From the sequence record PV691511.1: DNA of 64,000 nt. One strand, given 5' to 3'. Numbering within the stretch: the stretch's first letter is position 1; each line of letters opens with the position of its first letter. Both the position numbers and the translations under genes were made by a program. Positions 51,584 through 54,256 of the stretch are shown one piece after another. This DNA is from Escherichia phage WPEC2. The notes under the pieces were generated by a model. That model ran no database searches. It worked only from the letters and a program-made list of their open reading frames with translations, and was not told the origin of the DNA.

Positions 51584-54256
51584 ATGTTTCCAATTCCAAT
51601 ATTTACTATTATGACCAGCACTGGTGTAGTTCCTCTGCCAGCAGGTATTGTTAAAAAAGTAATCACTTTAGATTACCCAGATAATGCTGGTAATTCTAAC
51701 AGTAGTTTAGCAATTTTGCTTAATGATGGTAGATTGTTTACTCAAGGCGCAAACCTTTTTGGTGAGATTGCAGATGGAACTCGTAGTGCACGATTCAATA
51801 ATTTCTACTTAGCTTCTACTGTAGTAGCGGATGTGTTTACCGCAGATCGTTGTTTTGTTATTAAAACTAACAGTGGGGGATGGCAATATTCAGGATTGAC
51901 AGCAGGATTGGTAGGATCTATAGCAGCAGGTGGTACGGATGCATGTGTAACTACTTGGACCAGCTTTCCATCTGTGATAACAGGGACTATCTCTTTAGCC
52001 AATCTTAAAGAGGTTAAGGGAGGATACAACAACACCCTCTGGTTAATGAATAGTGGTGTTCTTTATGGATCTGGTCAAAACACAATAGGTAGTTTAGGTG
52101 CAAGTACTACTAACGAAGTTTCTACTCCTCGTCAGATAACAAGTTCAGCGGTTGCTTTTGATGCAGGTTACAACCAATGTTCTTATGTCAACAATGCTGG
52201 AACCTTGCGTGTTTGTGGAGCCAGTAAAGGTTTAGCAGGTAATAATAACACAACAACAGCTTTTGTCAATGCTACGATATCTGCTACTGAAACAGTGTAT
52301 GTCAAAGATTACATTAATACAGTTTCCCAGACAATAGTTGTAGGAGATACCTCCGGTGGCACGGGTACAGTAAACTACTTATATGTTAGATCTAATACAG
52401 AAACAACTTACACTAAACTGGACACCTTTGCAGCAGGTTTCTCCACATGGAAATTTCCACCAAGCCGCCACTCTTTTTTCGTTGGGATCAATAATTCCTT
52501 GTGGGCTATTGGTAAGAACTATACTGCAAACTTAGGTTTGGGGTATGATTCTGCGAGCGGAGATCCCCTCCAAGTAGGAAAACCAGTTAAACCTGAAGGA
52601 GTGGGTTCCTGGGATATAAATAAGCTCACAAGCGTTCATACGCTGAATATGGATGTTACTAACCAATTAGGTTATCAAGGAACCTTTTTCGTTTATAATG
52701 GAGATATGTATTATTCCGGTATTTGGAAAGATGGGAAAGCCTCGTACCTGTTCAATAGTGGTCTAAACTATAATAAATTCACACCAATAGCAAGCTCTGT
52801 GATTACTGGGGATGTGCTGGCAACTAGCTTAACTACAGATTCTTTAGGAGTTTGTATTGTAGGTGGAACTAAACAGTTGACACATTCTGTTAGCCCAGAA
52901 GGAGGTAAACTTTTCAATATTAAATACACTTCTTCTGCCCCTGCAAACATGACAATATCGTCTACTGGCTTAATGACTTTCCAAGCAGAAGGTGGTTTTG
53001 ATGCAGGTATGACAGCCTTAAACGCTGAAGGAACAACTTTATCAGATACCTCTGGAGGATATGCTTCAACATTAAGTGTTTACACTCCTAGCTTATCTGC
53101 GATGGATGTAGGAACAACACAAACAATGGTAGCAGAAATAACGCCAACAGGAGCAGCAAGCTTATCTGGCATGGTTGTAGAGTATACAACTACAGATCCT
53201 AATGTTGCTACAGTAGATCCTACAACTGGCGTAATAACTGGTGTTGGTGACGGTGGTTGTAGGATTGGTTGCACAGCTACGTATCAAGGTGTTGTTACCG
53301 CTTCTGATAGTTCTTATTTAACGGTGAATGCTGTTGCGGGAAAGGAGTTAGCTCCATCTCCGAGTAGTAGTTTAACGGTTCTAAACGGATATTTCAACCA
53401 CTCGGCAGATGGGGCGATTACGTTCCCAACTTTATCGGGTACTGTCACACCAGCTAACTTTGTAGTTAAGGTGGATGACGTTGTAGTTCCTTCAAGTAAA
53501 GTAATATTTAGAAATAAAGCTTTCTCTACAGTGGATAGTTATCCAGCAGGAGAATATAGACTGGCTATTGAATTTGCAAGTGCTTCAGTAGTTAATACTG
53601 TTGATGTGTCTATGCAAGCAAACCCAGATCTTTTAGAATTATGGGGCGGAAACAGGATTAGTTATTCTACAAGCCCAACCTCACAATTCTTAAAAGGTTG
53701 TGCTAACTTAAGACGAATAACCTCTGATTGTTTTAGTAACACATCTTACACCGGAACATCTATAAGTGGTATCTTCTCTGGCTGCACAAGTTTGATAGCT
53801 ATCCCTGAAGGATTATTCAGTGATACTTTATTTCCTTCGATGACAACAATGTCAAACACGTTTGAAGGTTGTACATCTTTAACATCTATTCCTTCAGATT
53901 TATTTAAGAATCTATCAAAAGTTACAAGATATTCTTACACCTTTAAAGATTGCACCTCGCTTGCAGAAGTTCCAGCAGGAATGTTTGATAATATTCCAAC
54001 TAAAGTGACCTCTTTAACAGCTACATTCCAAGGTTGTTTAGCACTTACAGATTTTAATAAAATCTTTAATGACAACCTAGGGTTAACGGTTTGTGGTCAA
54101 CGTGGAGCATTATCTTCTTTCTTTAGTGGATGCACAAATCTTACAGGAACAGGAGTAACATTAACAAGCACATTAGGTGGAGCAGCTAATAGTTACCTAT
54201 TTAGGTATTGCACAAAACTTTCTGATTATAACAATATTCCTTCGGGTTATAAATAA
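51584..54256 (+). CDS. multidomain tail fiber/adhesin: RCC1-like repeats, Ig-like (Big_2-like) domain and C-terminal BspA-type leucine-rich repeats
   Basis: RCC1-like GxxLxGxN repeats (GVLYGSGQNTIGSLG, NNSLWAIGKNYTANLGLGY); Ig-like TATYQGVVTASDSSYLTVNAV; repeated F.GCTSL..IP..LF units at C-terminus. Confidence 0.5.
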   Translation: MFPIPIFTIMTSTGVVPLPAGIVKKVITLDYPDNAGNSNSSLAILLNDGRLFTQGANLFGEIADGTRSARFNNFYLASTVVADVFTADRCFVIKTNSGGWQYSGLTAGLVGSIAAGGTDACVTTWTSFPSVITGTISLANLKEVKGGYNNTLWLMNSGVLYGSGQNTIGSLGASTTNEVSTPRQITSSAVAFDAGYNQCSYVNNAGTLRVCGASKGLAGNNNTTTAFVNATISATETVYVKDYINTVSQTIVVGDTSGGTGTVNYLYVRSNTETTYTKLDTFAAGFSTWKFPPSRHSFFVGINNSLWAIGKNYTANLGLGYDSASGDPLQVGKPVKPEGVGSWDINKLTSVHTLNMDVTNQLGYQGTFFVYNGDMYYSGIWKDGKASYLFNSGLNYNKFTPIASSVITGDVLATSLTTDSLGVCIVGGTKQLTHSVSPEGGKLFNIKYTSSAPANMTISSTGLMTFQAEGGFDAGMTALNAEGTTLSDTSGGYASTLSVYTPSLSAMDVGTTQTMVAEITPTGAASLSGMVVEYTTTDPNVATVDPTTGVITGVGDGGCRIGCTATYQGVVTASDSSYLTVNAVAGKELAPSPSSSLTVLNGYFNHSADGAITFPTLSGTVTPANFVVKVDDVVVPSSKVIFRNKAFSTVDSYPAGEYRLAIEFASASVVNTVDVSMQANPDLLELWGGNRISYSTSPTSQFLKGCANLRRITSDCFSNTSYTGTSISGIFSGCTSLIAIPEGLFSDTLFPSMTTMSNTFEGCTSLTSIPSDLFKNLSKVTRYSYTFKDCTSLAEVPAGMFDNIPTKVTSLTATFQGCLALTDFNKIFNDNLGLTVCGQRGALSSFFSGCTNLTGTGVTLTSTLGGAANSYLFRYCTKLSDYNNIPSGYK

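Follow-up and report, generated by a model that had tools for sequence, protein, structure and literature searches.

Phapecoctaviruses are broad-host-range phages that have been isolated repeatedly for therapy and biocontrol. In a published analysis of their tail-fibre proteins and those of related phages, variation between groups was found to centre on the C-terminal parts and to be associated with host-range differences. One of the proteins named there, TfpM1, is present in Phapecoctavirus and the proposed genus 'Wecvirus' and absent from phi92-like phages. The last position of the tail-fibre block is held by gp152 (202 amino acids, aa) in phi92 and by gp27 (1,878 aa) in rV5. Here, the TfpM1 protein of Escherichia phage WPEC2 was analysed in a window of 64,000 nucleotides (nt) of sequence record PV691511.1, to which all positions refer unless stated otherwise. 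The gene is an open reading frame (ORF) with an ATG start on the + strand, 51584..54256, with an 890-aa product, exactly as given in an earlier note made from the sequence alone, which had read the product as a receptor-binding protein combining RCC1-like repeats, an immunoglobulin (Ig)-like domain and BspA-type leucine-rich repeats (LRRs).

In Escherichia phage WPEC1 (Phapecoctavirus, subfamily Stephanstirmvirinae), CDS330 ('tail protein') has 100% nucleotide identity to the gene, and the WPEC2 protein aligns over its full length with PHROG 11922, also a 'tail protein'. The members of this family (for example WPEC1 CDS330, tuntematon, ESCO5, 536_P1 and phiWec190) are the same protein, with 81-100% identity, a length of 890 or 891 aa and the same locus. 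Identity over the gene is 94-97% in some 30 other phage records, among them ESCO5, tuntematon, AV125 and 536_P1. Of the 67 records matched in the phage genome collection, 33 span 80% or more of the gene, and the LRR region is present with no less than 90% identity in about 35 records. The gene is also found, with 91-95% identity relative to the coliphage gene, in records named 'Campylobacter phage B15' and 'Pseudomonas phage PsgM04F', and an Acinetobacter-named record was matched as well; either the host labelling of several records of this kind is questionable or the host range is unusually wide.

The protein is probably a low-copy, virion-attached accessory adhesin, that is, an auxiliary receptor-binding protein, of a Phapecoctavirus. 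In the text of the TfpM1 paper the terms RCC1, Ig-like, BIG2 and DUF285 are all absent; relative to that catalogue entry the domain-level description and the cassette structure are new, while the protein family itself was already known. No new mechanism is revealed. The contribution is a domain map for an 890-aa 'tail protein', a distal module that behaves as a self-contained cassette, with four or more states and its junction at the end of the second Ig-like domain (Ig2), and the indication that docking likely takes place through aa 1-~195. All three are useful for host-range engineering and for comparing near-identical therapeutic phages. In addition, repeats of the LRR_5/DUF285 class, mainly known from bacterial surface proteins, are seen to recur in phage tail proteins.

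Domain Architecture and Predicted Fold

Hidden Markov model (HMM) domain searches and structure prediction, two of the checks proposed in the earlier note, found all three of the domain classes named there. The AlphaFold2 model, built with 26 homologues as input, has a mean predicted local distance difference test score (pLDDT) of 82.7, with values mostly of 80-95 at aa 20-310 and below 50 at aa 586-589 and 591-594. The N-terminal part (aa 1-405; 51584..52798, + strand) consists of a conserved M-x-P-x-P peptide followed by an RCC1-like seven-bladed beta-propeller (aa ~21-405). Pfam RCC1 (PF00415) is matched by one repeat, marginally, at 22.6 bits against a cut-off of 21.7. The whole-domain RCC1-like family WD40_RLD (PF25390) spans aa 40-332 at 44 bits, below its cut-off of 150, and PF13540 reaches 10.7 bits, below its cut-off of 22. 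In a Foldseek search of the PDB, the best match of the propeller is UVR8 (E=1e-12, template modelling (TM) score 0.70, normalised by the target), and HERC2 (TM 0.62), RPGR and RCC1/RCC2 (TM 0.44-0.49 for RCC1) are also found. On the predicted structure, the N-terminal domain is a seven-bladed propeller superimposable on RCC1-like domains, and the RCC1-type repeats noticed earlier are borne out by the match to UVR8-type propellers, with a marginal Pfam score for one repeat. An enzymatic role such as that of a depolymerase was rejected, as no catalytic family is matched and the propeller matches RCC1-like binding domains only.

The propeller is followed by tandem Big_2 Ig-like domains (aa 410-585; 52811..53338, + strand), which end at a DSSYLxVNA motif. 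Big_2 (PF02368) is matched in two stretches at 30.4 bits against a cut-off of 22.8, the best being aa 505-565, and the model has two beta-sandwiches at aa 410-585. Leptospira LigA is among the Foldseek matches for this region. The Pfam score and the beta-sandwich fold together place the region in Big_2, and the Ig-like segment of the earlier note corresponds to two such domains. A linker modelled with low confidence (aa 586-594; 53339..53365, + strand) connects this conserved N-terminal region to the exchangeable C-terminal module. The latter comprises a third beta-sandwich (aa 595-690; 53366..53653, + strand), which moves together with the LRR cassette, and the LRR region itself (aa 700-890; 53681..54253, + strand), with seven repeats of 26-32 aa (aa 703-890), a helical cap and a conserved C-terminal 'Y..IP..(W/Y)K' motif. 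In the model, a short strand recurs roughly every 27-28 residues before the helical cap, and the C-terminal repeats are predicted to fold as an LRR solenoid.

The LRR Module Lies Between Two Repeat Families

The seven C-terminal repeats follow the pattern F.GC.sL..iP.glF, with lengths of 28, 29, 27, 28, 32 and 26 residues in the WPEC2 protein and 27 residues in the relatives P0041, P0042 and P0046. When the C-terminal 299 aa are scanned alone, LRR_5 (PF13306) reaches 17.7 bits (E=0.0033), below its cut-off of 27.7, and no LRR_5 match is seen when the full-length protein is scanned against Pfam. DUF285 (PF03382) is matched weakly by the full-length protein and at 15.7 bits by the C-terminal region alone (13.8-15.7 bits in all, below the cut-off of 25), and the NCBIfam PARCEL-repeat family TIGR02167 gives a weak match of 15.2 bits against a cut-off of 30. 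Since it scores below the cut-off for both LRR_5 and DUF285, the WPEC2 module formally belongs to neither family.

A search with the C-terminal module alone retrieved 424 relatives, with E-values down to 2e-41. These have highly regular 27-residue repeats of the form F..C.SLTSIP.GLFDN...VT.F, a PKD-like 'DWGDG' domain upstream, where WPEC2 has its third sandwich, and share the C-terminal cap 'Y..IP..WK'. One of them additionally carries a lactophage receptor-binding head domain. In a family-scan alignment of 72 members (the WPEC2 module plus 71 relatives), LRR_5 is matched by 32 members (best E=7e-42) and DUF285 by 20 (best E=2e-51); P0041, the closest relative of the module, matches neither family and P0042 matches both. 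The profile of this family matches the solved structures 4fs7 (E=3e-26) and 4gt6 (E=5.5e-21) and the Treponema protein TpLRR (E=1.3e-8). By the 4fs7 match and the E-values of the module's relatives, the similarity of the C-terminal F.GC repeats exceeds chance. The aligned 4fs7 segment itself scores 187.7 bits on LRR_5. The repeats of 4fs7 are 23 residues long, and its HMMER alignment to the module opens gaps in each repeat. The WPEC2 repeats do not have the ~23-residue length of TpLRR/BspA repeats, whereas the predicted fold is an LRR solenoid with BspA-class proteins as its nearest solved relatives. 'BspA-type' was therefore a reasonable first approximation rather than a formal family assignment, given the repeat length (~27 rather than 23 residues) and the LRR_5 score below the cut-off. 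The name BspA-type is also used by NCBI for DUF285 proteins. On its sequence, the module belongs to a 27-residue class between BspA-type LRR_5 and DUF285/PARCEL.

Phage Precedents for the Domain Combination

RCC1-like propellers, often together with Ig-like domains, are found in PVP-SE1 gp40 and in the 'Ig-like domain protein' of rV5-like phages, and such propellers are also present in the jumbo phages PBECO4, GAP32 and slurp01, in Yersinia fHe-Yen9 phages and in a Pseudomonas phage 'tail fibre'. The combination of propeller and Ig domains is common in rV5-, PVP-SE1-, phAPEC8-like and jumbo phages. Proteins with repeats of the LRR_5/DUF285 type are annotated as 'tail protein' in a Synechococcus phage and in temperate Klebsiella phages, and further examples of such repeats come from Vibrio phage pir03 and from the genomes of Listeria, Erwinia and Klebsiella phages. 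In metagenomic phage contigs, relatives of the module lie within or beside phage structural genes (capsid, tail), and one bacterial protein among the matches combines RCC1, Big_2, LRR and dockerin domains. The combination of RCC1, Ig and LRR is thus uncommon rather than exceptional, each part having phage precedents, and the earlier description of it as an unusual domain mix was overstated. A literature search found no functional study of an RCC1 or BspA/LRR phage tail-fibre or receptor-binding protein.

The Distal Module Is an Exchangeable Cassette

A combined alignment of full-length and C-terminal relatives (A2) was dropped, as unrelated N-termini were smeared over the propeller, and alignments A1 and A3 were used separately. 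In the comparison of homologues, a conserved backbone spans the N-terminal ~590 aa, and four states are seen for the C-terminal third. In the first, which is the WPEC2 type, the beta-sandwich and LRR are present. In the second, they are replaced by an unrelated module of ~300 aa (P0008-10, P0013, P0016, P0017 and P0038) that has no Pfam match; this module contains a 'GNGWYRV' motif and takes the place of the LRR in roughly half of phapecoctavirus genomes. The third state is a canonical DUF285 domain (E 1e-37 to 1e-42 in P0021, P0022, P0024 and P0026), preceded by a PKD-like match in P0022 and P0024. In the fourth, there is no C-terminal module, and the proteins are ~570-610 aa long (P0027-37).

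The exchange junction lies directly after the near-invariant DSSYLxVNA motif at the end of Ig2. The proteins P0008-10 are 96-97% identical to that of WPEC2 over the N-terminal 66% and then continue into a different C-terminus. Conversely, P0002-P0007 are 88-94% identical to WPEC2 in the sandwich and LRR cassette and 74-86% identical in the propeller, and therefore carry the same cassette on diverged backbones. The arrangement found is that looked for in a receptor-binding protein, in which the proximal part is conserved and the distal module can be exchanged.

Two kinds of deletion variant were also found. P0163 and P0168, from near-complete genomes (contigs of 143 and 147 kb), are 610-aa versions with a 280-aa in-frame deletion of aa ~196-475, equivalent to 52169..53008, that lies between two 'FDAG' motifs as read at the protein level. 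Roughly half the propeller and the greater part of the first Ig domain (Ig1) are lost from them, and the N-terminal ~195 aa are retained along with Ig2 and the complete cassette. P0040, from a 21-kb metagenomic contig (Logan SRR10359460_34; L002 8705-9895), lacks 3,548 nt, corresponding to 49747..53284 of the window, with the deletion at an imperfect ~10-nt microhomology CAA(G/A)GTGTTG. The result is an in-frame fusion of aa 1-73 of the neighbouring fibre, which contain its Tail_spike_N anchor, to aa ~568-890 of the 890-aa protein. As read from these sequences, the deletion variants suggest that selection acts on the N-terminal ~195 aa and on the distal cassette, with an intact propeller not being essential.

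Candidate Ligands of the LRR Module

Phage 536_P1 carries the same LRR allele as WPEC2 (96% nucleotide and 95% protein identity), and resistance to it has been studied genetically. In 57 resistant clones, 77% of the mutations affected genes for lipopolysaccharide (LPS) biosynthesis and a further 18% the K15 capsule region; three mutations in membrane proteins (mdtC, pqiA and ECP_0298) were each accompanied by an LPS or capsule mutation. The receptors published for the Phapecoctavirus-related phage group are the LPS core and enterobacterial common antigen (ECA). In view of these published genetics (LPS core, ECA and capsule), the ligand is no less likely to be a surface glycan than a protein.

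The earlier note had proposed protein-directed recognition, in which the LRR tip would bind a host outer-membrane protein and provide a route beside the glycan-directed fibres and spikes. Such resistance screens, to our knowledge, reveal essential receptors only, and so they leave room for an accessory protein ligand. However, the proposal gains no support from the fold, as the ligands of LRR solenoids are of many kinds and their fold is no indicator of ligand chemistry: among the matches of the family profile are also three variable lymphocyte receptors of lamprey, RBC36, Tn4-22 and O13, which we take to be glycan binders. In the 536_P1 screen, membrane-protein mutations were seen only together with mutations in LPS or capsule genes, the receptors published for the group are glycans of the LPS core and ECA type, and the alternative alleles at the locus give no hint of protein binding. 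An outer-membrane protein is therefore an improbable receptor for the tip.

Probable Virion Association and Role

The gene is the final one of the + strand baseplate and fibre block, the order of which is baseplate genes, short tail fibre, its assembly protein, lipoprotein, tailspike, collagen-like fibre and the 890-aa protein gene. The homologue rV5 gp27 has been detected in the rV5 virion proteome by mass spectrometry, from 3 peptides and 9 spectra that gave a coverage of 3.1% (PMC3606486, Table S5). The first ~190 residues, with their invariant M-x-P-x-P start, are conserved among phapecoctavirus, rV5 and PVP-SE1-like phages. Together with cassette exchange and the fusion to a Tail_spike_N anchor, the position in the block and the virion detection of gp27 make the receptor-binding or tail role proposed earlier plausible, and a tail-associated binding role of the protein is likely.

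If the protein is an accessory adhesin, the conserved N-terminal region, consisting of the M-x-P-x-P peptide and the first propeller blades (aa 1-~195), would dock onto the baseplate or fibre network. This region is a candidate for virion attachment because rV5 gp27 has it too and the deletion variants retain it, and the docking part may extend to the whole propeller. The two Big_2 domains and the beta-sandwich that follows would form a spacer arm, and the distal LRR solenoid would bind a ligand on the host surface. The sandwich and LRR would act as a recombination cassette, exchanged at the end of Ig2 for DUF285, for the unrelated ~300-aa module or for nothing, and its exchange would tune host range. 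A low copy number is suggested by the hairpin upstream of the gene (see below) and the low spectral count of rV5 gp27. The protein would be accessory in the sense of non-essential.

A location outside the virion, with the protein acting inside the cell or after injection as an RCC1-like 'DNA condensation' or host-takeover factor that adjoins the tail genes by chance, would agree with the annotation of related phage RCC1-like proteins as 'regulator of chromosome condensation' or 'DNA condensation protein'. However, these names are inherited from the eukaryotic family, and the 'DNA condensation' reading was rejected for this reason. Big_2 and LRR_5/DUF285 domains typically occur in surface proteins outside the cell, the Ig tandem is common to proteins annotated as lateral tail fibre, one contig joins the module to a Tail_spike_N anchor, and rV5 gp27 is found in virions. 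It is very unlikely that the protein is a non-virion factor.

The protein might alternatively be a Hoc-like decoration that is on the virion and binds environmental or animal-host material, such as mucus glycans, or adheres non-specifically, with no bearing on host range. The tandem Big_2 domains, the phi92 counterpart gp152, which consists of the Ig tandem alone, the natural deletion and truncation variants, which suggest a dispensable gene, and the fact that the resistance screens implicate no specific receptor for the protein would all be accommodated in this way. The gene lies, however, in the tail-fibre block and not in the head module. Exchange of the distal module by cassette is the usual signature of a host-range determinant, and the published analysis ties C-terminal differences of tail-fibre proteins, TfpM1 included, to differences in host range. 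A decorating function of this kind thus seems doubtful.

Several observations weigh against the protein being an accessory adhesin of the kind proposed here. Evidence for presence in the virion is indirect, coming from the partial homologue rV5 gp27, and no phapecoctavirus virion proteomics was found in the literature looked through. When orthologue variation was examined for a concentration on the LRR's concave beta-strand face, exposed positions were only slightly more variable, with no clear hypervariable patch. Neither Pfam nor the monomer model shows a coiled coil, beta-helix or collagen in the protein, and propeller, Ig and LRR domains are typically monomeric. As no trimerisation element was seen and the domain types are typically monomeric, the predicted architecture is probably not that of a classical trimeric fibre. 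P0163 and P0168 mean either that an intact propeller is dispensable or that the gene is non-essential. The P0040 fusion is on one assembled contig only, the 90% cluster of which consists mostly of fragments, and as a single contig it counts as an anecdote. Finally, the 536_P1 resistance screens yield only LPS and capsule mutants, so the 890-aa protein is not the sole infection determinant on the 536_P1 host.

A stronger form of the receptor-binding interpretation is a monomeric 'beads-on-a-string' receptor-binding protein, in which the LRR solenoid, of an intermediate 27-residue LRR_5/DUF285 class, would recognise a specific E. coli surface molecule, possibly a protein, and the propeller would be a new virion-docking or second binding domain. 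We regard this form as a long shot. If true, this would be the first characterised LRR-type coliphage receptor-binding protein, as far as found, and the cassettes would be ready-made for retargeting.

Flanking Signals and Neighbouring Genes

The coding sequence (CDS; 51584..54256, + strand; 890 aa and stop; tail protein 'TfpM1', PHROG 11922) is preceded by a Shine-Dalgarno sequence GGAGGG, read directly from the sequence at 51574..51579 (+ strand), 5 nt 5' of the ATG. A terminator-like hairpin with a T-run (51545..51564, + strand) follows immediately 3' of the stop of the upstream collagen-like fibre gene. It has a stem of 8 pairs, 5 of them GC pairs, and the tail CTTTTTATGG. The 890-aa protein gene is therefore probably transcribed by read-through of this hairpin. 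A bidirectional terminator-like hairpin (54259..54280, no strand assigned) occupies the convergent gap between the gene and a minus-strand gene of the replication module. GC-rich terminator-like hairpins follow all three consecutive host-recognition genes, namely those for the colanidase tailspike (49461..49483), the collagen-like fibre (51545..51564) and the 890-aa LRR protein (54259..54280), and expression of the three may be graded by read-through.

The first of these genes encodes a colanic-acid-degrading tailspike of 1,017 aa (46401..49454) and the second a collagen-like fibre of 674 aa with a Tail_spike_N anchor (49518..51542). Tail_spike_N is internal (aa 302-361) in the tailspike and N-terminal (aa 12-77) in the fibre, an arrangement reminiscent of the branched receptor-binding complexes of Ackermannviridae.

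The downstream neighbour is convergent (54313..55200, - strand) and is followed by replication genes. Its 295-aa product ends in DFDDDIPF, an acidic tail like that of single-stranded DNA-binding proteins (SSBs), and this tail matches the SSB families PHROGs 18154 and 7364. At the corresponding position in phi92, gene_153 (L007 6731-7618) is an 888-nt ORF of equal length on the opposite strand, annotated 'tail protein' with the remark 'no RBS identified; weak prodigal statistics' (RBS, ribosome-binding site); it may be a wrong-strand call. Further downstream, a family-A DNA polymerase of 1,110 aa (56877..60209, - strand) has an apparent large insertion at ~aa 590-840 that starts at a Cys and ends ...TGN|C, and looks intein-like by eye. 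In the Pfam scan of this polymerase, DNA_pol_A alone was matched (aa 845-1009), with no Hint or homing-endonuclease domain.

Comparison with Known Systems

Among proteins at the end of the tail-fibre block, phi92 gp152 corresponds to the Ig tandem alone: it is 64% identical to aa 411-584 of the WPEC2 protein and is without propeller and tip. A literature search on gp152 found nothing. rV5 gp27 shares the N-terminal ~195 aa, with 39-40% identity, and a Big_2 domain, but is about twice as long, has other content and is without the LRR module. PVP-SE1 gp40-like proteins (~600 aa) are 38-50% identical in the N-terminal ~195 aa, but end after Ig2 and likewise are without the LRR module.

The propeller resembles those of UVR8, HERC2, RPGR and RCC1 in its seven predicted blades, its TM score to UVR8 and the one RCC1 repeat just over the Pfam cut-off. 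It differs in having only 12-18% identity to them and in its whole-domain score of 44 bits, far under the cut-off of 150. The context also differs, being presumably extracellular and virion-associated in the phage and unrelated to Ran or chromatin, unlike that of the eukaryotic RCC1-like domains.

With regard to the LRR module, BspA/TpLRR proteins (LRR_5; for example Bacteroides ovatus BACOVA_04585, PDB 4fs7) have 23-residue repeats as opposed to the 26-32 residues of WPEC2, and the 'iP.gLF.n..vt' half of the WPEC2 repeat is not BspA-like. DUF285/PARCEL proteins (PF03382, TIGR02167) share the 'vt.m..tF.gC' half of the repeat and a similar period of 25-26 residues, and canonical DUF285 occurs at the equivalent position in sister alleles of the phage protein (E down to 1e-42). 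However, the WPEC2 module is without the canonical 'W-D-t-s-n-V' motif and scores under the cut-offs of these families.

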